Counted from the stretch's first letter, positions 8,786 through 21,713 are shown. The stretch is 25,599 nt of DNA from a virus (IMGVR_UViG_3300026189_000026:1-25599); one strand, 5' to 3'. Notes: generated by a model from the sequence alone, not told the origin. Program-made: numbers and translations.

Positions 8786-9913
8786 ATGTCCAGTGGAGAT
8801 TTACAAGAAATGGAAGTAGGCACTAAGCAATCCAAAACTGCTGTAAACTCTGGCGCAAAGCCAGCAGATCCTATGCCAACAATGGCAGATCCCGGAACCC
8901 AACTCGGTTCTGTAGAAGATCTGGGTGGACCTACACCAGAAAACTATAAGCCTGATGATGATTCAGCAAAACTGAAAGAACCCGGTGCAACACTGAAGCA
9001 AGTCAAAGATGTTGTAAATAAGGGAGCAAAACCTGCAGATTCAATGCCTAAGATGGCAAATCCTGTTAAGGAAGAAGAAGAAATTGAAGACGAAGTTGTC
9101 GCAGAACAAGAGACTGCAGAGGAAGAGGTAGTCGCTGAAGAAGAGACAACCGAGGAAAAAACAGTTGCTGAAAAGGAAGAAGTAATCGAATATGACATCG
9201 AAGAAGATGTCAATGCGCTTCTTGCTGGCGAAGAACTTTCCGAAGAGTTCCAAGAAAAAGCAAAAGTAATCTTCGAGACTGCTATTAATGCGAAAGTTTC
9301 GCAAATTCAAGTAGAACTCGAAGAAAAGTATTCTTCTGTATTTGCAGAAGAAGTTGAAACATTCAAGGGAGAACTCTCGGAAAGAGTTGATTCTTACCTT
9401 GAGTACGTCGCTGATGAGTGGTTCCAAGAGAATGCACTCGTCATCGACCAAGGTCTGAAAACCGAAATGACCGAGAGTTTCCTCTCGGGCATGAAGGACC
9501 TTTTTGAAGCACATTATGTAGAAATCCCTGAAGATAAATATGATGTTGTCCATAACATGGTAGACAAACTTGATGACATGGAAACAAAACTCAACGAGCA
9601 GATTGAGAAAAATGTTTCCCTCAACAAGCGCCTCGCAGAGTCGGTTGCTGACGGAATCTTAGATCAAGTCTCTAATGGTCTTGCACAGACACAGAAAGAG
9701 AAGCTCGCCTCACTTGCCGAAAGTGTTGAGTTTGAAAGTGAAGAAGAATATCGTGAAAAGTTGGAGACACTGAAGGAGTCATATTTTGCTCCTAAGAAGC
9801 AATCTTCATCTGTAAAGACTGAAACCCTTTCTGAAGGTGTAAGCAACGATCACCAGCAATATTCTGGTTCGATGAATGCATATGTCAGAGCACTAGGAAG
9901 CACAGTCAAATAA
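8786..9913 (+). CDS. g22: Prohead core scaffold protein (gp22)
   Basis: Very acidic and helical; LSEEFQEKAKVIFETA, VDSYLEYVADEW, KLETLKESYF; lies between g21 and g23. Confidence 0.95.
   Translation: MSSGDLQEMEVGTKQSKTAVNSGAKPADPMPTMADPGTQLGSVEDLGGPTPENYKPDDDSAKLKEPGATLKQVKDVVNKGAKPADSMPKMANPVKEEEEIEDEVVAEQETAEEEVVAEEETTEEKTVAEKEEVIEYDIEEDVNALLAGEELSEEFQEKAKVIFETAINAKVSQIQVELEEKYSSVFAEEVETFKGELSERVDSYLEYVADEWFQENALVIDQGLKTEMTESFLSGMKDLFEAHYVEIPEDKYDVVHNMVDKLDDMETKLNEQIEKNVSLNKRLAESVADGILDQVSNGLAQTQKEKLASLAESVEFESEEEYREKLETLKESYFAPKKQSSSVKTETLSEGVSNDHQQYSGSMNAYVRALGSTVK
8843..9064 (+). repeat. Duplicated 17-aa motif in the gp22 N-terminus
   Basis: VNSGAKPADPMPTMADP (8843-8893) and VNKGAKPADSMPKMANP (9014-9064). 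Confidence 0.8.
9092..9181 (+). repeat. Degenerate 33-nt (11-aa) tandem repeat in gp22
   Basis: EVVAEQETAEE / EVVAEEETTEE / KTVAEKEE. Confidence 0.7.
9533..9540 (+). promoter_or_regulatory. Candidate internal late promoter for g23
   Basis: GATAAATA inside g22; the g22-g23 intergenic region has no TAAATA box. Confidence 0.5.
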
Positions 9914-12902: not shown

Positions 12903-14381
12903 GTGATTGATAGTACGGCAAATGTTATTATTTCAAAGTCAAACGAAGTATTTTTAAAAGTAAAAACAGAACCTCATATTGAATATGAACTAAGAGATCA
13001 TTTTACTTTCGAAGTTCCAAATGCAAAGTTTATGCCACAATACCGTGGTAAAAATTGGAATGGAGAAATACATCTCTTTGATATGAGGTCAAAGACAATT
13101 TATGTTGGACTCTTGGATAAGATTGTCCAGTTTTGTGACAACTACGGATATACTTATAAATTTGAAGACAATAAATTTTATGGAACTCCTTACGAGGAGA
13201 ACCATCATGTATCATATGAAGGAGTGAAAGATTATATTAATTCCATCACTTCATTTTCTCCCAGAAAGTATCAAATTGAAGGTGTGTATGACGCATTAAA
13301 ACATAACAGAAAGTTACTGATAAGTCCCACTGCTTCCGGTAAATCGTTGATGATTTACTCGCTTGTAAGGTACTATCATGCTCAAGGAGAAAAAATTCTT
13401 TTAGTTCTTCCGACGACAAGTCTAGTAGAACAGATGTATAAAGATTTCGAAGACTATGGTTGGGATTCTGAGTCATATTGTCACAAGATATATGCAGGTA
13501 GGGAGAAGAGAACAGACTTACCAGTTACAATCACAACATGGCAATCTGTATACAAGTTGGAGAGATCTTTTTTTGAAGACTATGGTTGTATTATAGGTGA
13601 TGAAGCACATTTATTCAAGAGCAAATCACTTATACAAATCATGACAAAATTGCATCATGCAAAGTACAGATTTGGTTTTACAGGAACATTAGATGGTACA
13701 CAGACCCACAAATGGGTCCTAGAGGGATTGTTTGGACCATCATATAAAGTTACTAAAACTGAAGAGTTAATGCGTCAAGGACATTTATCTCAACTCGATA
13801 TACAATGTCTCGTATTACAACATCCTGGACAAAACTTTAAAACCTATGAAGATGAGATACAGTACCTTATTTCTCATGAGCAAAGGAATAACTTTATCAA
13901 AAATCTAGCACTTGATCTTAAAGGAAATACACTTGTTCTTTTTCAAAGAGTCGAAAGCCATGGAGCAATACTCTACGAAAAGATAAATAATTACAAGCGA
14001 GATGACCATAAAGTATTTTTTGTACATGGCGGAGTGGATACTGAAGAAAGAGAATTAATTCGTGAGATTACCGAAAAAGAAGATCATGCAATTATTGTAG
14101 CTTCTTACGGAACATTTTCAACTGGTATTAACATAAAGAACTTGCATAATGTAGTCTTTGCTTCTCCATCAAAATCAAGAATTAGAAATCTACAATCAAT
14201 TGGTAGAGTGCTCAGAAAAGGAAGTAACAAAACAAAAGCAATTCTTTATGATATCGGGGATGATATTAAGAAAGGATCTAGAAACAATTATACTCTCAAT
14301 CATCTAATAGAAAGAATTAAGATATACAATGAAGAAAAATTTAATTATGACATAATCACTATACAACTCAAAAACAAATGA
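12903..14381 (+). CDS. uvsW: SF2 DNA/RNA helicase UvsW
   Basis: SPTASGKS, DEAH, FTGT, STGINIKNLH, QSIGRVLR; GTG start. Confidence 0.97.
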   Translation: MIDSTANVIISKSNEVFLKVKTEPHIEYELRDHFTFEVPNAKFMPQYRGKNWNGEIHLFDMRSKTIYVGLLDKIVQFCDNYGYTYKFEDNKFYGTPYEENHHVSYEGVKDYINSITSFSPRKYQIEGVYDALKHNRKLLISPTASGKSLMIYSLVRYYHAQGEKILLVLPTTSLVEQMYKDFEDYGWDSESYCHKIYAGREKRTDLPVTITTWQSVYKLERSFFEDYGCIIGDEAHLFKSKSLIQIMTKLHHAKYRFGFTGTLDGTQTHKWVLEGLFGPSYKVTKTEELMRQGHLSQLDIQCLVLQHPGQNFKTYEDEIQYLISHEQRNNFIKNLALDLKGNTLVLFQRVESHGAILYEKINNYKRDDHKVFFVHGGVDTEERELIREITEKEDHAIIVASYGTFSTGINIKNLHNVVFASPSKSRIRNLQSIGRVLRKGSNKTKAILYDIGDDIKKGSRNNYTLNHLIERIKIYNEEKFNYDIITIQLKNK

Positions 14382-14785
14382 TAGAAGACGATTTTTACGC
14401 AACAATCAAACTAAAGAACGGTGAAGAGATTTTTGCTAAAGTCGCAGCTTCAGAAGAAGATGAAAGAACAATGTTAATTGTTTCTAATCCTGTTGTAATT
14501 GGCGAAATCAAAGTACAATCAAATATGGTTGGATACAAAATAGAACCATGGTTAAAAACAACAAAGGATGATATGTTCTTTATTAACTTGGATGACGTTC
14601 TTACAATGTCAGAATCATCTGATATTGAAATGATTATGATGTATCAAGAATTTATACATCATGCTCAACAACCACAGAAAGGCAACTCTGCAAAAATAAG
14701 TAAGAAAATGGGATATGTTTCTAATATTAATGATGCGAAAGAGTTACTAGAGAAGCTCTTTAATCTGAAATATAAGCCTGAATAG
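14378..14785 (+). CDS. Conserved hypothetical protein (Sm-like beta barrel suspected)
   Basis: ATGA overlap with uvsW; IKLKNGEEIFAKV...PW pattern typical of the gene between uvsW and g55 in T4-like cyanophages. Confidence 0.8.
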   Translation: MIEDDFYATIKLKNGEEIFAKVAASEEDERTMLIVSNPVVIGEIKVQSNMVGYKIEPWLKTTKDDMFFINLDDVLTMSESSDIEMIMMYQEFIHHAQQPQKGNSAKISKKMGYVSNINDAKELLEKLFNLKYKPE

Positions 14786-16461: not shown

Positions 16462-16734
16462 ATGTTTATTTTGACTTTACGTGGTAGAGAAAGAGAGGGA
16501 GCATACTATGCTCTAGATGAAGAGCAGAATGAAATCTTATACATCTTTGAAGAAGAAGATGATGCAACTAGGTTTGCTATGATGTTAGAAGAAGATGGAA
16601 GTCCTGAAATTCATATTATAGAAGTTGATAGTCAAGCAATAGTTGAAAGTTGTGAACTATCTGGGTGTGGATACGCTATTATTACCAAAAACGATTTTGT
16701 AATTCCTCCAAAAGGCAGAAATGATTTTATTTGA
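16462..16734 (+). CDS. Acidic hypothetical protein (90 aa)
   Basis: GAY, LYIFEEEDDA.RFAMML, VIPP; between g47 and g46. Confidence 0.8.
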   Translation: MFILTLRGREREGAYYALDEEQNEILYIFEEEDDATRFAMMLEEDGSPEIHIIEVDSQAIVESCELSGCGYAIITKNDFVIPPKGRNDFI

Positions 16735-18433
16735 GAAGATCCGGTGGAAAAACTTTTTGAGCACTGGTAATCAATTCACAGAGGTCAGTCTTTGTGATAA
16801 TTCGACGAGTTTGATTATTGGAACGAATGGTGCTGGTAAGAGCACCATTCTTGATGCCTTGTGCTTCTCTTTGTTTGGAAAACCTTTTCGCAAAATCAAC
16901 AAACCACAACTAATCAATTCGACAAATGAAAAGGATTGTAGAGTTGAAATAGAATTTACTCTTTCTGGAATTCAGTGGAAAGTTGTAAGGGGAATCAAAC
17001 CCGGAATTTTTGAAATCTGGAAGAATGGATCCCTGATGGATCAAGCTTCATCTGTTGTCGATCAACAGAAGTGGTTTGAGCAGAATGTTCTAAAGATGAA
17101 CTTTAAATCTTTCACACAGATTGTAATTCTTGGAAGCAGCACATTTGTTCCCTTCATGCAGTTGACTTCCTCCAATCGTCGCGAAGTAATTGAGGATCTT
17201 TTAGATATTCGCATTTTTTCCAATATGAATATGGTAATAAAGGAGAAGATAAGAGAGATAAAAGAGAACATAAAAGTTTTGGAACTGAAAAAAGACTCTC
17301 TGAATGATAAAGTATCAATGCAGAAAGAATTTATTCAAAAAGTTGAAAGAGATTCTGAGTTTATGATTGGTGCGAAGCAGAATCGCATAAGTAGTTTAGA
17401 ATCTGAGATGGCAGATCATCTTCAGAAAATTGAAAGATATAATGATGAAATTGCTGAAAAACAACTTGAATTTGATGATTGGTCTGGTGATAAGAATAAA
17501 CTAAAGAAACTCAATCAACTAAGAGGTAAGATCTCTCATCGAATTGATTCCGTTGTTAAGGAACATAAATTTTTTACTGGAAATAAGGTTTGCCCTACCT
17601 GCACACAATCTATTGAAGAAGACTTTAGAATAAATAAAATTACAGACGCTCAAAATAAGTCAAAGGAGTTGCAATCAGGTTTTCTTGAACTTGAAGAGGC
17701 AATTAAAGAGGAAGAAGAGCGAGAGCGTCAACTTAACTCTATCACTCGGGAGATAACTAACCTCACGCATGGCATATCTACAAACAATGTTACGGTTTCT
17801 GAGATTCGGAAACAGATCAAGTGTTTGGAATCAGAAATTCAAAAACTTGCCAGTCAACTTGCAAACAAGAATTCTGAACATGAGAAGTTAGACTCCTTTA
17901 AAAAGAAATTAAAAGAAACTCTAAACGAACTTTCTGAGAGTAGAGAAAAAATTAACTATTATGATTTTTCTTACTCTTTGCTAAAAGATGGTGGAGTAAA
18001 AACAAAAATCATCAAGAAGTATCTGCCCTTAATAAACAATCAGGCAAATAGATATCTTCAGATGATGGATTTTTATATCAACTTTACGTTGGATGAGGAG
18101 TTTAACGAAACGATTCGCTCTCCAATTCACGAAGACTTCTCATATTCTTCTTTTAGTGAAGGTGAGAAAATGAGAATTGATCTAGCTCTTTTGTTTACTT
18201 GGAGAGAAGTTGCTAGAATGAAGAACTCTGTCAACACCAATCTGTTAATTATGGATGAAGTATTTGATAGTTCTCTTGATGGATTTGGTACTGAGGAGTT
18301 TCTAAAAATTATTCGATATGTAATCAAGGATGCAAATGTCTTTATTATTTCTCATAAGGAATCTCTTCATGATAAATTTGAGAATGTGATAAAGTTTGAA
18401 AAAGTAAAAGGTTTTAGCAGAATGTTGTCATGA
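16721..18433 (+). CDS. g46: Recombination ATPase subunit gp46 (Rad50/SbcC-like)
   Basis: Walker A GTNGAGKS, coiled coils with zinc hook CPTC, signature FSEGE, Walker B LLIMDE, D-loop SSLD, H-loop ISH. Confidence 0.97.
   Translation: MILFEKIRWKNFLSTGNQFTEVSLCDNSTSLIIGTNGAGKSTILDALCFSLFGKPFRKINKPQLINSTNEKDCRVEIEFTLSGIQWKVVRGIKPGIFEIWKNGSLMDQASSVVDQQKWFEQNVLKMNFKSFTQIVILGSSTFVPFMQLTSSNRREVIEDLLDIRIFSNMNMVIKEKIREIKENIKVLELKKDSLNDKVSMQKEFIQKVERDSEFMIGAKQNRISSLESEMADHLQKIERYNDEIAEKQLEFDDWSGDKNKLKKLNQLRGKISHRIDSVVKEHKFFTGNKVCPTCTQSIEEDFRINKITDAQNKSKELQSGFLELEEAIKEEEERERQLNSITREITNLTHGISTNNVTVSEIRKQIKCLESEIQKLASQLANKNSEHEKLDSFKKKLKETLNELSESREKINYYDFSYSLLKDGGVKTKIIKKYLPLINNQANRYLQMMDFYINFTLDEEFNETIRSPIHEDFSYSSFSEGEKMRIDLALLFTWREVARMKNSVNTNLLIMDEVFDSSLDGFGTEEFLKIIRYVIKDANVFIISHKESLHDKFENVIKFEKVKGFSRMLS
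17629..17636 (+). promoter_or_regulatory. Candidate internal late promoter within g46
   Basis: AATAAATA, identical to the boxes before g18 and uvsW, 8 nt upstream of a nested hairpin. Confidence 0.5.
17769..17891 (+). CDS. Candidate overprinted 40-aa basic peptide in the +1 frame of g46
   Basis: MAYLQTMLRFLRFGNRSSVWNQKFKNLPVNLQTRILNMRS*; downstream of the late box and structured leader. GGGAG at 17748-52 is unusually far (16 nt) from the ATG. Confidence 0.35.
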   Translation: MAYLQTMLRFLRFGNRSSVWNQKFKNLPVNLQTRILNMRS

Positions 18434-19164
18434 GAGTTTTAGTTACAGGTCATAAAGGTTTTATAGGTAGAAATGTATATCTAGATTGGCAAGAACAACT
18501 GGGATCTGTAAATGTAGATGGAATTGATTTTCCAGACAACATTGGTCAGTTTGATGGTGGTGATTATGATTTGGTAATTCATCTTGCTGCTTATGCAAAC
18601 ATTCGAGAGAGTCTAGAAGATCCTGAAAAGTTCTATGTAAATAATGTATTGATGGCAAAACCATTATTTGATTGGTGTCGGGATACAAATACTCGTCTTC
18701 TCTATGCATCATCGAGTGCTGTGGAAGAAGAGTATTGGGAAAATCCATATGCAATGACAAAGTGGGTAAACGAAATGATGGCCCCATCAAACTCTGTTGG
18801 ATTAAGATTCACTACAGTTTATGGTCCAGACAGTCGAAAAGATATGATGTATCGTATGCTAGAAGATAAAAATGCAAAATACGTTACAAATCATCGGAGA
18901 GATTGGATTCACGTAAAGGATGTCTGTCGTGCAATTCGATATCTCGCTCACGCAAATGTTAATGGCCCAGTGTCTGTTGGAACGGGAAATTCTGTCTCTG
19001 TAAAAGAACTTGCAGAAAAGATGGGCATGGGACACTTACCTCTGAAAGAAAATACTCCAGGAGAAAGACTTGATAATGCTGCAGATACCACTGTTTTGAC
19101 TAGTATTGGATGGTTCCCCACTGTCAATGTTATGGATACTGTGAAGAAAAATTTAGTTTCATAA
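18430..19164 (+). CDS. NAD-dependent nucleotide-sugar epimerase/dehydratase (extended SDR, WcaG-like)
   Basis: TGHKGFIG Rossmann motif, VIHLAA, YASSS, catalytic YAMTK (YxxxK), LRF.TVYGP, RDWIHV.D; ATGA overlap with g46. Confidence 0.93.
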   Translation: MRVLVTGHKGFIGRNVYLDWQEQLGSVNVDGIDFPDNIGQFDGGDYDLVIHLAAYANIRESLEDPEKFYVNNVLMAKPLFDWCRDTNTRLLYASSSAVEEEYWENPYAMTKWVNEMMAPSNSVGLRFTTVYGPDSRKDMMYRMLEDKNAKYVTNHRRDWIHVKDVCRAIRYLAHANVNGPVSVGTGNSVSVKELAEKMGMGHLPLKENTPGERLDNAADTTVLTSIGWFPTVNVMDTVKKNLVS

Positions 19165-19238
19165 AAAACTTATTAAGTGTAAAGCAAAAGACATTAAGTT
19201 AGCATACGCTGACTATATAATATAGAATTGAGGCAATT

Positions 19239-19254
19239 TGTATGGCATGATACA
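19239..19254 (+). promoter_or_regulatory. NtcA-box-like operator
   Basis: TGTA-TGGCATGA-TACA matches the cyanobacterial NtcA consensus (T)GTA-N8-TAC(A). It is intergenic, 17 nt downstream of TATAAT (19216-21). Confidence 0.55.
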
Positions 19255-19287
19255 TTTATTATGTTATGTTGATCATCCGGAGGTATA

Positions 19288-19464
19288 ATGCACAATCTCA
19301 TTTCTTATAATCAATTAGCTGGTTGGAAGCAAAGCATAGAAAAACTTTCTATCATAGATCAAAAAACAGATGATGCCGACATCCTTAACGATTATTATAA
19401 CTGCTTGATCGAATGCGACGAAACCCAACACATGTGTAAACGTATTTGTAAAGAACTTTTGTAA
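19288..19464 (+). CDS. Small Cys4 protein (58 aa); absent from the supplied ORF track
   Basis: SD GGAGGT at 19279-84. Translated by hand: MHNLISYNQLAGWKQSIEKLSIIDQKTDDADILNDYYNCLIECDETQHMCKRICKELL*, with CxxxC-x6-CxxxC. Confidence 0.8.
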   Translation: MHNLISYNQLAGWKQSIEKLSIIDQKTDDADILNDYYNCLIECDETQHMCKRICKELL

Positions 19465-19467
19465 CAA

Positions 19468-19525
19468 GGACACTAGAAAAACTGTCACTGAGGGCCCTCA
19501 CCGAAAGGTGGGGGTTTAGTATTAT
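19468..19525 (+). promoter_or_regulatory. Candidate early promoter with upstream dyad box
   Basis: GGACACTAGAAAAACTGTCAC, then 31 nt, then TATTAT (19520-25); the same AACTGTCAC box recurs at 22441. Confidence 0.6.
19494..19517 (+). terminator. GNRA-loop hairpin, possible weak terminator for the Cys4 gene
   Basis: GCCCTCACC-GAAA-GGTGGGGGT, 9 bp including 2 G-U pairs; only a short T run follows. Confidence 0.5.
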
Positions 19526-19547
19526 GGCCACATAAGAAACGAACCAC

Positions 19548-21713
19548 ATGTACGTCTCCCACGAAATCAAGTCACAACTGGCAAAACTCCTTGCGACTGA
19601 AGACCTGGTCGTTGAGCATCGTCAGATCGAGACCGCACAATTCAATGTTCACACTCGTGTCCTGACCCTCCCTGTATGGGATACGAGCAATGTTGTGTAT
19701 GACATGCTCGTTGGTCATGAGGTTGGTCATGCCCTGTTTACTCCAGACAATGACTGGTTTCTGGAGCATGATATTCCACCACAGTTTGTCAATGTGGTAG
19801 AAGACGCTCGCATTGAGAAGTTGATGAAGCGCAAGTATCCTGGACTTGCAAAGACATTTTTTGGTGGATACAAGGAAATGAATGAAAATGACTTCTTTGA
19901 CCTGTCGGGTGAAGATGTCTCCTCCATGAATCTTGCAGATCGAGTTAACCTATACTTTAAGGTTGGAAACTTTGTTGATATCAACTTTGACGATCAAAAA
20001 GAAATGCCTCTCGTCCACACAATTGCTGAGTGTGAGACATTTGAAGATGTTCTAATTGCCGCAGAGACTCTTTACAAGCACTGCAAGAAAGAGATTGATA
20101 ATGATGACAGACCAGATGCTCCTATTCCCCCTCAGGAGAACTTTGAGTCTGAATCTTCTCAACAGAACTCTGAGACTTTAGATTCTCAAGATTCTGAAAA
20201 TAGTGATAGTGAGGATGAATCTCAAGATTCTATTGAGAACAATTCTCAAGTTACTCCCGGATCTAATGCTGGAGATAATGATGAATTGGAAGTTACAACA
20301 GCGAACAATCTTGAAGAAAAACTCAAGGATCTGATTGACCAAAGGTCTGGTGACAGTGTCTATGCTGAAATCCCCAAACTAGATTCTCAAAACCTCATCG
20401 CTAAAAACTCTGACGTTCATGACGTAATTAACGAGTGGTTCACTCTTGTTCAAAGAACGTCTAATCAAAGAGCAAAATCTCATGGAATGGATGGGATTGA
20501 TCTTTATAGTGTTGTTGACCAACTTTTCTATGACTTCAAGAAGTCTGCTCAGAAGGAAGTCAACTATTTGGTGAAGGAGTTTGAATGCAAGAAAGCAGCA
20601 GATTCCTATGCTCGTGCTTCTACCTCTCGCACTGGTGTTCTTGACACCGCTAAACTTCATACTTATAGATATAATGAAGATCTCTTCAAGAAGGTTACGG
20701 TCCTTCCAGACGGTAAGAATCATGGGTTGATCTTTGTTCTTGATTGGTCTGGATCAATGTCTAACGTTCTTCGGGATACCTGCAAGCAACTATTCAACTT
20801 GATCTGGTTTTGTAAGAAAGTATCGATCCCTTTTGAGGTTTATGCATTCACTAATGAGTGGAAAAGATCTCATTACAGCCACAAACTAGAAAAGTATGTT
20901 GATGCTGATTTGACTCCTTCATATAAAAAGAAAGAAGGTTTCTTGTCCATTGACGATTCATTTTCTATGATGAATATTTTCACCAGTCAAGTTCCTGCAA
21001 AGGAGATTGAAAAACAGATGATCAATATTTGGAGAATTGCTTGTTACTATGGCAATGTATATGGTTCTCGCTACTCTGTTCCTGAGCGTCTTAGTTTGTC
21101 TGGAACTCCCCTAAATGAAGCATTGGTTTCTCTTCATACAATTCTTCCAGACTTTCAGAAGACAAATAAACTTCAGAAAGTTCAGTGCATTGTTCTTACT
21201 GATGGTGAAGCAAATAGTCTTTCATATCATGTTACGGTTAAGAGGCCCTGGGAACCAGAACCATTTCTTGGAACCCGTCATCTTTATCCGGGAGAGTCCT
21301 ATGTCCGTGATCGCAAACTTGGAACAACCTATGCAATACAGGGTCAATATCGATGCTTCACTGATGTCATGCTTCGCAACTTGAAGGACAACTTCCCTAA
21401 CGCAAACTTCATTGGAATTCGGGTTCTTGCTCCTCGCGATGCAAACTCATTCATTCGTAGTTACTGTGACTTTGGTGATGATGAGTTTGATCGTATTCAA
21501 AAAGATTGGAAGAAGTCTAGGAGCTTTAACATCAAATCTTCTGGATATGATGCTTACTTTGGAATGTCTTCTGCAACTCTTTCTCAGGAATCTGAGTTTG
21601 AAGTTGATGGTGGTGCAACCAAAGCAAAGATCAAATCTGCATTTGCTAAGTCTCTGAAGACCAAAAAACTAAATAAAAAGGTATTAGGAGAATTTATTTC
21701 TTTGGTGGTATGA
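19548..21713 (+). CDS. Metallopeptidase-VWA domain protein (CobT-like partner of a MoxR-type ATPase)
   Basis: HEVGH (HExxH) plus NVVEDARIE, acidic Ser/Asp/Glu linker, VWA MIDAS DWSGS ... SGTPL ... LTDGE. Confidence 0.88.
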   Translation: MYVSHEIKSQLAKLLATEDLVVEHRQIETAQFNVHTRVLTLPVWDTSNVVYDMLVGHEVGHALFTPDNDWFLEHDIPPQFVNVVEDARIEKLMKRKYPGLAKTFFGGYKEMNENDFFDLSGEDVSSMNLADRVNLYFKVGNFVDINFDDQKEMPLVHTIAECETFEDVLIAAETLYKHCKKEIDNDDRPDAPIPPQENFESESSQQNSETLDSQDSENSDSEDESQDSIENNSQVTPGSNAGDNDELEVTTANNLEEKLKDLIDQRSGDSVYAEIPKLDSQNLIAKNSDVHDVINEWFTLVQRTSNQRAKSHGMDGIDLYSVVDQLFYDFKKSAQKEVNYLVKEFECKKAADSYARASTSRTGVLDTAKLHTYRYNEDLFKKVTVLPDGKNHGLIFVLDWSGSMSNVLRDTCKQLFNLIWFCKKVSIPFEVYAFTNEWKRSHYSHKLEKYVDADLTPSYKKKEGFLSIDDSFSMMNIFTSQVPAKEIEKQMINIWRIACYYGNVYGSRYSVPERLSLSGTPLNEALVSLHTILPDFQKTNKLQKVQCIVLTDGEANSLSYHVTVKRPWEPEPFLGTRHLYPGESYVRDRKLGTTYAIQGQYRCFTDVMLRNLKDNFPNANFIGIRVLAPRDANSFIRSYCDFGDDEFDRIQKDWKKSRSFNIKSSGYDAYFGMSSATLSQESEFEVDGGATKAKIKSAFAKSLKTKKLNKKVLGEFISLVV
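21668..21675 (+). promoter_or_regulatory. Candidate late promoter for ORF 21710
   Basis: ACTAAATA in the 3' end of the VWA gene, 34 nt before ATG 21710; AGGAG lies between them. Confidence 0.55.

Follow-up and report, generated by a model that had tools for sequence, protein, structure and literature searches.

The viral DNA considered here, IMGVR_UViG_3300026189_000026:1-25599 (25,599 nt; this whole stretch is called the window below), is a fragment of a T4-like cyanophage, with genes for terminase, tail and head proteins, uvsY, uvsW, g55, g47, g46, an epimerase, a peptidase, cobS and g45. The product of its g46 (gp46) is ~70% identical to those of Bellamy and S-SM2 (tblastn against annotated cyanophage g46). 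Directly 3' of the zinc hook, in g46 codons 303–391, lie in order a T4-type late promoter box, a predicted transcription start, a predicted rod-like RNA structure, a Shine-Dalgarno-like motif, and a 40-codon open reading frame (ORF) in the +1 frame (Table 1). The initial annotation, made from the window alone, took these for an unannotated late gene with a structured leader; box, helices P1–P3, GGGAG, ATG and TAG are all where it placed them, and by the comparative tests described below the proposed gene appears to be real. Its premise that protein constraint is weak here holds in part, as several gp46 residues within the unit are invariant. Within the window alone the signals are modest, and the case therefore rests on relatives.

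Table 1. Features of the g46 region, in window coordinates.
Feature	Position	Strand	Remarks
Host gene g46	16721–18433	+	SbcC/Rad50-like recombination nuclease subunit, 570 aa; PHROG 77, E 3.5e-191
Zinc hook CPTC	17591–17602	+	g46 codons 291–294
T4-type late promoter box AATAAATA	17629–17636	+	core TAAATA 17631–17636; exact match to consensus
Predicted transcription start (+1)	17642	+	three bases before P1
Leader rod	17645–17729	+	P1 closing the 5' end, purine-rich internal loop, P2, P3
Helix P1	17645–51/17723–29	+	double compensatory events 17/12/15 (three trees)
Unpaired conserved loop bases A17653, U17656	17652–17656	+	with A17722 opposite; candidate recognition site
Helix P2	17667–72/17699–704	+	double compensatory events 1/1/1
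Helix P3	17675–81/17688–94	+	double compensatory events 6/2/6
Shine-Dalgarno-like motif	17747–17752	+	CGGGAG here (GGGAG 17748–52); AAGGAG in most relatives
Nested +1-frame ORF	17769–17891	+	40 aa; ATG 17769, TAG 17889–91
Hairpin P4	17791–802/17817–828	+	within ORF; double compensatory events 21/15/18 (three trees)
Nucleotide-sugar epimerase	18430–19164	+	PHROG 540; in hypervariable slot after g46

Conservation of the nested frame and its promoter box

Loci were fetched from IMG/VR in sets of 80, by the window gp46, by a profile of the peptide, and by the S-SCSM1 gp46, and 12 g46 regions of named phages were added. With the window these make 253 sequences, reduced to 178 by dereplication at 93% nucleotide identity and removal of rows gapped in the region; a further 80 loci, found by Syn9 gp46, were kept apart as an outgroup. 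Parsimony counts used the 151 full-length ORF-bearing sequences. The 51 peptide-selected rows are biased, and key tests were rerun without them (108 and 65 sequences). A separate set of 69 comprises the dereplicated sequences from the gp46-only search.

The ORF is kept in 164 of the 178 g46 genes, with the same start codon in all 164 and a length of 40 codons in 159; in the 69-sequence set, 68 have the ATG and 67 the length. Other 40-codon +1 windows of g46 have a median open fraction of 0.01. The ATG is retained across H/N/Y and G/D/E exchanges in gp46, and the stop alternates between TAG and TAA. When the window gp46 was recoded synonymously, the +1 frame remained open in 26% of the trials, and ATG, open frame and stop occurred together in 6%.

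Within the ORF, substitutions that leave gp46 unaltered but introduce a +1 stop are depleted about tenfold (1.6 vs. 15–22 in controls). Those that leave gp46 unaltered but change the peptide run at 9 (17–20 in controls), about half the control rate, and doubly silent changes, in which neither protein is altered, at 27 (30–39). Third-position changes per site drop to 17 in the ORF and to 24 over promoter and rod; the spacer that separates rod from ORF has 34.5, and the count elsewhere is 36–44. The Syn9-like outgroup shows no third-position dip. The selection pattern stays when the peptide-selected rows are left out, and is absent from 13 ORF-less genes. Start, stop and amino acid pattern, which the initial annotation named as tests, are thus all preserved: residues of the +1 peptide are conserved, beyond the mere openness of the frame.

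T4-type late promoters consist of an 8-bp box with no −35 element, and the box here has their consensus, NATAAATA (PMC2984593). Its TAAATA core, for whose conservation the initial annotation proposed to test, is kept in 163 of the 164 ORF-bearing genes vs. none of the 14 ORF-less ones, and the box is present in 68 of the 69-sequence set. Searches by gp46 alone found box and ORF together in 66 of 67 genes (window gp46 set) and 37 of 47 (S-SCSM1 gp46 set), with neither in the remainder; the two are kept or lost together. The first box codon encodes I, L or V in gp46, always as xTA (ATA, TTA, GTA or CTA); the box Asn is always AAT, though AAC makes up 26% of Asn codons elsewhere; and the box third codon positions are A in 164 of 164 and T in 164 of 164. 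The six core sites have undergone 0, 0, 1, 0, 0 and 0 parsimony changes on the 151-tip tree, vs. ~40 at each ordinary third position. In the window as a whole the box is not over-represented: ATAAATA occurs nine times, all on the + strand, vs. 6.2 expected, and 20 of 100 shuffles reach nine. The identical late box is found ahead of structural genes in this window. Two more + strand copies are intragenic: that at 9534–9540 lies in the scaffold gene g22, with g23 downstream, and that at 13983–13989 in uvsW, upstream of the following gene and of g55; these could be further internal late promoters.

These counts bear on whether box, structure and open frame are merely mimicked, either by the constraint on gp46 close to the hook or by block gene conversion among relatives. 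Each signal alone is indeed unremarkable in the window, and Syn9-like genes produce similar motifs purely from gp46 residues: TAAATA recurs in 20 of 49, as Asn-Lys-Tyr codons with free synonymous sites, and the +1 window at g46 codons ~110–155 is open in 92% of 48, with no conserved start. (An ATG-started +1 frame of varying length is also found at codon 346, in the stretch ~346–400, in 11 of 46.) Lacking a third-position dip, the open frames of the Syn9-like set were read as by-products of gp46 residues. In the same set, the post-hook box is found in 0 of the 46 genes long enough to be scored. Unlike these by-products, which keep free synonymous codons and have no fixed start, the nested locus is constrained in both respects; the spacer between rod and ORF varies normally; and the compensatory changes described below survive on the region's own tree. 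An origin as a by-product of either kind is largely refuted, and scarcely to be believed.

The box-to-start spacing in T4 is 6 nt, by which transcription here would begin at base 17642. More generally, the late box sits about one helical turn ahead of the transcript start (PMC2988020). Base 17642 is a purine in all 164 ORF-bearing genes, though its codon gives ten different residues, and such invariant-purine behavior was seen at 0 of 55 equally variable coiled-coil control codons. RNA evidence comes from contigs of RNA runs, six of which were searched; contigs show neither ends nor strand, and their depth is no guide to the rank of expression. One ribosomal RNA-depleted marine run contains a 149-nt contig (depth 12) in which the rod continues, at P1, into the opposite strand of its own downstream sequence. 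Its native letters stop at 17642–43, and the molecule extends past the Shine-Dalgarno motif, a hint that it is self-primed cDNA of an RNA starting at the predicted site.

Predicted leader structure and putative translation signals

Covariation was assessed as double compensatory events on three trees, against a null of 500 draws with partners from the same region. For P1, the null maximum is 3–5 and 0 of 500 nulls match on any of the three trees; for P3, 8, 121 and 0 of 500 match, so that covariation holds on two trees of three. The compensatory changes that the initial annotation proposed as a test are thus firm in P1 and tree-dependent in P3. P4, the hairpin within the ORF, which the initial annotation did not include, is likewise matched by 0 of 500 within-region nulls on all three trees, and compensatory changes persist on the tree made from the region itself. 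Some of the covarying pairs in P1 and P4 alter gp46 residues, and at one site the changes are for the most part silent in either protein. The excess of G-U over A-C cells (363 vs. 111) identifies the + strand as the folding strand.

The rod has a predicted energy of −24.5 kcal/mol in the window (z −2.99, reached by 1 of 200 shuffles), with a z of −3.9 against synonymous recoding of gp46. Over the 69 sequences, 93.9% of P1–P3 cells are paired, with 18 two-sided changes (0 of 500 shuffles), and the median z against synonymous recoding is −3.5 for 59 rows and −2.1 for 10 divergent ones. At least seven long-range 5' pairs can be formed in 159 of the 164 ORF-bearing genes; in divergent relatives P1 is rebuilt with other letters or registers in the same place, and P2 and P3 are remodeled more freely.

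Within the internal loop, A17653 is kept in 161 of 164 genes, U17656 in 158 (in N, T, D, S, I, V, G or L codons), and A17722 in 153, all at third codon positions. The purine richness of the loop is a consequence of Glu and Lys codons. A kink-turn reading of the loop was dropped on inspection, since the required G-A after the bulge is absent. The PHROG 471 "methylamine utilization" gene at 14378–14785 has a positional counterpart in S-SCSM1 that is annotated "Sm-like RNA-binding protein"; its product is a candidate binder of the purine-rich loop, yet the gene also occurs in phages that lack the unit. In the rod, doubly silent changes drop to 9.8 (few sites); in the ORF they are near normal. Judged by these substitutions, constraint acts on the nucleotides of the rod, but in the ORF chiefly on the protein.

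Such constraint raises the question of whether the unit works chiefly as RNA. A late RNA of ~250 nt (rod, P4 and ORF), dual-function or trans-acting and loosely 6S-like, would then serve as protein decoy or sponge, with the peptide as second output. SgrS/SgrT and RNAIII are dual-function RNAs, and the likeness to them is the combination of structure and a short ORF in one RNA; 6S is a rod with a central loop. The invariance of unpaired loop bases regardless of the gp46 residue, the suppression of doubly silent changes in the rod, and the extension of structure into the ORF with real covariation (P4) all speak for it. Against it, a terminator scan of 17400–19700 found no terminator-like site, after P1 or elsewhere, nor is there a conserved signal after the ORF stop or constraint beyond it; P2 and P3 are freely rebuilt in divergent relatives; and the loop's purines have the explanation just given. 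A helix that would close the ORF (17774–81/17881–88) was rejected, being broken far more often than compensated and showing no covariation; two others, P4b and P5, do not covary. The free-standing 85-nt RNA envisaged in the initial annotation finds no support, given the missing terminator after P1 and the fold-back contig, which runs past the Shine-Dalgarno motif. Its 6S comparison is likewise unsupported: Rfam gave chance matches only, with none to the 6S covariance model at E up to 1 (window) or 10 (one relative), and although both are rods with a central loop, the one here, at 85 nt with arms of 7 and 13 bp and no terminator, is far smaller than 6S (~180 nt). An RNA model built here matches only g46 in five whole records, with weak matches in two ORF-less ones; by its matches, the predicted start, 6–7 nt past the box, would fall at ~127,589 in P-SSM2 (AY939844) and ~111,005 in S-SM2 (GU071095). 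RNA as the main product therefore seems unlikely.

At the Shine-Dalgarno position, AAG-GAG is used for 129 of 142 Lys-Glu pairs, vs. 64 of 775 elsewhere in g46. A hairpin that might sequester the motif (17749–54/17774–79) was set aside: it is pairable in 97%, but has one double change and an energy of about −0.6 kcal/mol. Prochlorococcus marinus is poor in Shine-Dalgarno motifs (PMC10783764). P4 averages −10.6 kcal/mol vs. a median of −4.8 for 45-nt g46 windows, for a window picked post hoc; in this copy it is a shorter, remodeled hairpin at 17795–17813. Its pairing may add to the selection measured on +1 amino acids.

An internal AAGGAG under selection could also point to a programmed +1 frameshift after the motif, producing a shortened gp46 with a 40-aa tail, and there are database gp46 fragments fused to the +1 peptide. 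However, these fusions change frame at differing places, like indel errors; in many relatives a +1 stop lies just two codons upstream of the ATG, and there is no common slippery site; and a frameshift needs neither an invariant ATG nor a promoter that is lost together with the ORF. This explanation is highly improbable.

The peptide and its distribution

Alone among 159 peptides, that of the window lacks acidic residues altogether, a feature that the initial annotation had listed as a property of the product; the median is 4 acidic and 7 basic residues. AlphaFold2 (61-row alignment led by a relative's copy) predicts helices at residues 2–12, 17–26 and 29–39 (pLDDT 78, pTM 0.45). All three helices are short; the Pro turn is invariant, and the helix-Pro-helix end nearly so. 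The first helix is amphipathic. The best 19-residue hydropathy mean has a median of 0.35 and a maximum of 1.03 over 159 peptides; with no membrane-spanning helix by hydropathy, a holin or type I toxin-like membrane peptide was rejected.

Pfam and PHROGs have no family for the window peptide, giving weak matches only when the alignment was used, and the ESM Atlas has no usable match. Fold searches returned generic helical repeats (best Z 4.2) and, with Foldseek, nothing notable, which does not exclude homology. A 17-residue likeness of the last two helices and Leu-Pro turn to the ubiquitin-binding motif (UBM) of DNA polymerase iota is weak (E 0.044). Pfam UBM (PF14377) matches 2 of 61 members (E 0.026) and DUF2281 10 of 61 (E 0.01), none significantly, and UBM is absent from the fold-search matches listed; since DUF2281 matches more members than UBM, the likeness is probably that of a generic helical hairpin.

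By tblastn, the peptide is found in 45 phage records, in none of which is it annotated as a gene of its own; carriers include P-SSM2, S-SM2, S-SSM7, P-TIM68, Bellamy and S-CAM9, and S-SSM7 keeps it though its gp46 is only 51% identical. In 43 of the 45 records it lies within g46 by annotation or coordinates, and all 80 IMG/VR loci found by the peptide contain a hook-bearing g46 frame. About 3000 IMG/VR stretches are estimated to match the peptide patterns. Among 26 profile matches, the 24 viewed were mostly frameshifted g46 fragments, with two 40-aa calls, two repeat proteins and two partial matches. In P-SSM5 (HQ632825.1, ~210688–212393) g46 matches in two pieces with no annotated feature beneath the nested ORF, probably through a frameshift in the record. 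Two GTDB contigs match the peptide; both are cyanophage g46 fragments carrying the full unit, in metagenome bins labeled Poseidoniales and Acidibacter, and are probably mis-binned phage contigs.

Syn9, S-SCSM1 and ACG-2014f are ORF-less, and their whole records have no match to the peptide. A gp46 tree from which the region was excluded, with Syn9 as root, places the two ORF-less groups, S-SCSM1 (10) and ACG-2014f (2), inside the ORF-bearing genes, with mixed inner supports; this placement suggests secondary loss. The peptide has no homology to the gp46 profile. No stand-alone copy was seen among the peptide loci, phage records or profile matches viewed, which fits birth by overprinting, the probable origin of the gene.

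A probable nested late gene and its alternatives

Together, the comparisons show selection beyond the needs of gp46 on every part of the unit: on the box, the pairing, the Shine-Dalgarno motif, the start and stop codons and the residues read in the +1 frame. The unit is probably a nested late microprotein gene, comprising late box, 5'-protecting and probably regulatory structured leader, weak ribosome-binding site and a 40-aa helical peptide. The box within g46 would initiate a late transcript near 17642; to go by the consensus and by the presence of both g55 and g45 in the window (PHROG annotation), initiation would depend on gp55, gp33 and gp45. The first 88 bases of the transcript would fold into a rod shielding its 5' end. 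Stem-loops at the 5' end slow 5'-end-dependent decay (by RNase E or J), and P1, which pairs the third to tenth RNA base, would have this effect. The invariant loop bases would bind a factor tuning stability or translation, output would be held down by P4 and by the distance of the Shine-Dalgarno motif, and the ATG at 17769 is likely translated into the 40-residue microprotein. Given an amphipathic first helix, a helix-Pro-helix end and no membrane-spanning segment, the peptide most likely docks on a protein, and would be a small protein-binding module acting late in infection.

Several observations weigh against a nested gene of this kind. For the frame, the N0S1/N0N1 ratio of 2.14 does not discriminate, as windows in the gp46 head reach 2.38. 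For the promoter, S-SCSM2R has the ORF with TAGATA and no exact box; base 17642 is a purine in 13 of the 14 ORF-less genes as well; and the fold-back molecule is one contig from one run, which template switching at the stem could mimic without a true 5' end. As to the rod, P2 shows no covariation on any of the three trees, and P3 loses its covariation when the tree is made from this region alone (121 of 500 nulls); slid controls have up to 7 two-sided-change columns vs. 5 for the true pairing; RNAalifold at default settings finds no structure on all 69 sequences or a 60-sequence long window, and recovers P1–P3 only with RIBOSUM scoring or after removal of 10 divergent rows; mean P1 pairing probability is ~0.5–0.7 once downstream sequence is added, though with no consistent alternative fold; and five ORF-bearing genes have no rod. 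The Shine-Dalgarno motif ends 16 nt ahead of the ATG, vs. 4–9 nt for other genes of the window, and a Shine-Dalgarno-like 4-mer is missing from 9 of 164. Finally, the putative partner of the peptide, the gp46/47 nuclease or a DNA-packaging step, is a first guess and a doubtful one. A more elaborate proposal makes the unit a late off-switch for g46, an overprinted RNA-and-peptide module in which the loop would be a protein-binding sensor and the peptide would bind gp46/47, so that DNA ends shift from recombination to packaging; this is distinctly unlikely.

Same-strand nested genes are familiar: in phiX174 E lies within D, and in lambda Rz1 within Rz. In E. coli, gnd contains the 36-aa gndA (PMC11230408). 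With all three the unit shares a short, out-of-frame ORF entirely contained in an important gene, missed by annotation and with selection of its own; it adds its own late-class promoter and a covarying leader. The peptide resembles none of them in sequence, and has neither the membrane-spanning segment nor the lipobox found in E or Rz1. The g46 of T4 itself holds two promoters, P46i(1) and P46i(2) (PMC2988021), but these are MotA-dependent middle promoters, as against the late-type box with leader and ORF here, and these cyanophages lack motA (PMC2984593). The consensus is the same as that of T4-type late promoters, here in an intragenic position.

If correct, an unannotated, strongly selected gene and two RNA structures lie within a core replication gene of a widespread cyanophage lineage, and ~260 nt carry information of three kinds at once, for the host protein, for the nested protein and for RNA pairing. 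This would be a clear example, in a large double-stranded DNA phage, of a gene with a probable origin by overprinting. The natural losses in the S-SCSM1 and ACG-2014f lineages are built-in controls. Carriers include the long-studied P-SSM2 and S-SM2, with infection transcriptomes, and g46 expression values in these phages may blend middle and late transcripts. Papers on Syn9 differential RNA sequencing and on the P-SSM2 infection transcriptome reportedly exist. A literature search that covered few subscription papers found no report of the nested unit; transcriptome papers or their supplements could mention the promoter. The main cyanophage promoter survey kept intergenic promoters only (PMC3037559), and an RNA survey removed the coding regions of DNA viruses (PMC10690425), so both would miss this unit; surveys that omit coding regions miss units of this sort generally.

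The late RNA would continue through the rest of g46, giving late expression of whatever fills the variable slot behind it. The promoter might even exist for the genes behind g46, here the epimerase, with leader and ORF as passengers or as an mRNA-protecting translated spacer. No terminator was found from box to epimerase, and the two middle promoters inside T4 g46 (PMC2988021) also favor this. However, ~41 unrelated gene clusters (by crude 4-mer grouping) fill the slot in 159 loci, and only 13 have this epimerase, which does not support that gene as the reason for the promoter; the ORF stop is ~540 nt ahead of the epimerase, a gap that argues against coupling; and it is the peptide residues that are conserved, not openness alone. 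A promoter kept chiefly for downstream genes is very unlikely. With the nested gene as the preferred reading, the epimerase is plausibly read by run-through from its promoter, but run-through does not explain the unit. The slot (18430–19464 and equivalents) holds apparent sugar-modifying enzymes, oxygenases, a sulfotransferase, nucleases and small basic ORFs. Just ahead of the peptidase gene is a GC-rich hairpin at 19480–19540 (strong part ~19490–19515; −22.7 kcal/mol per 60-nt window), a possible end of the late run-through RNA although the terminator scan did not call it.

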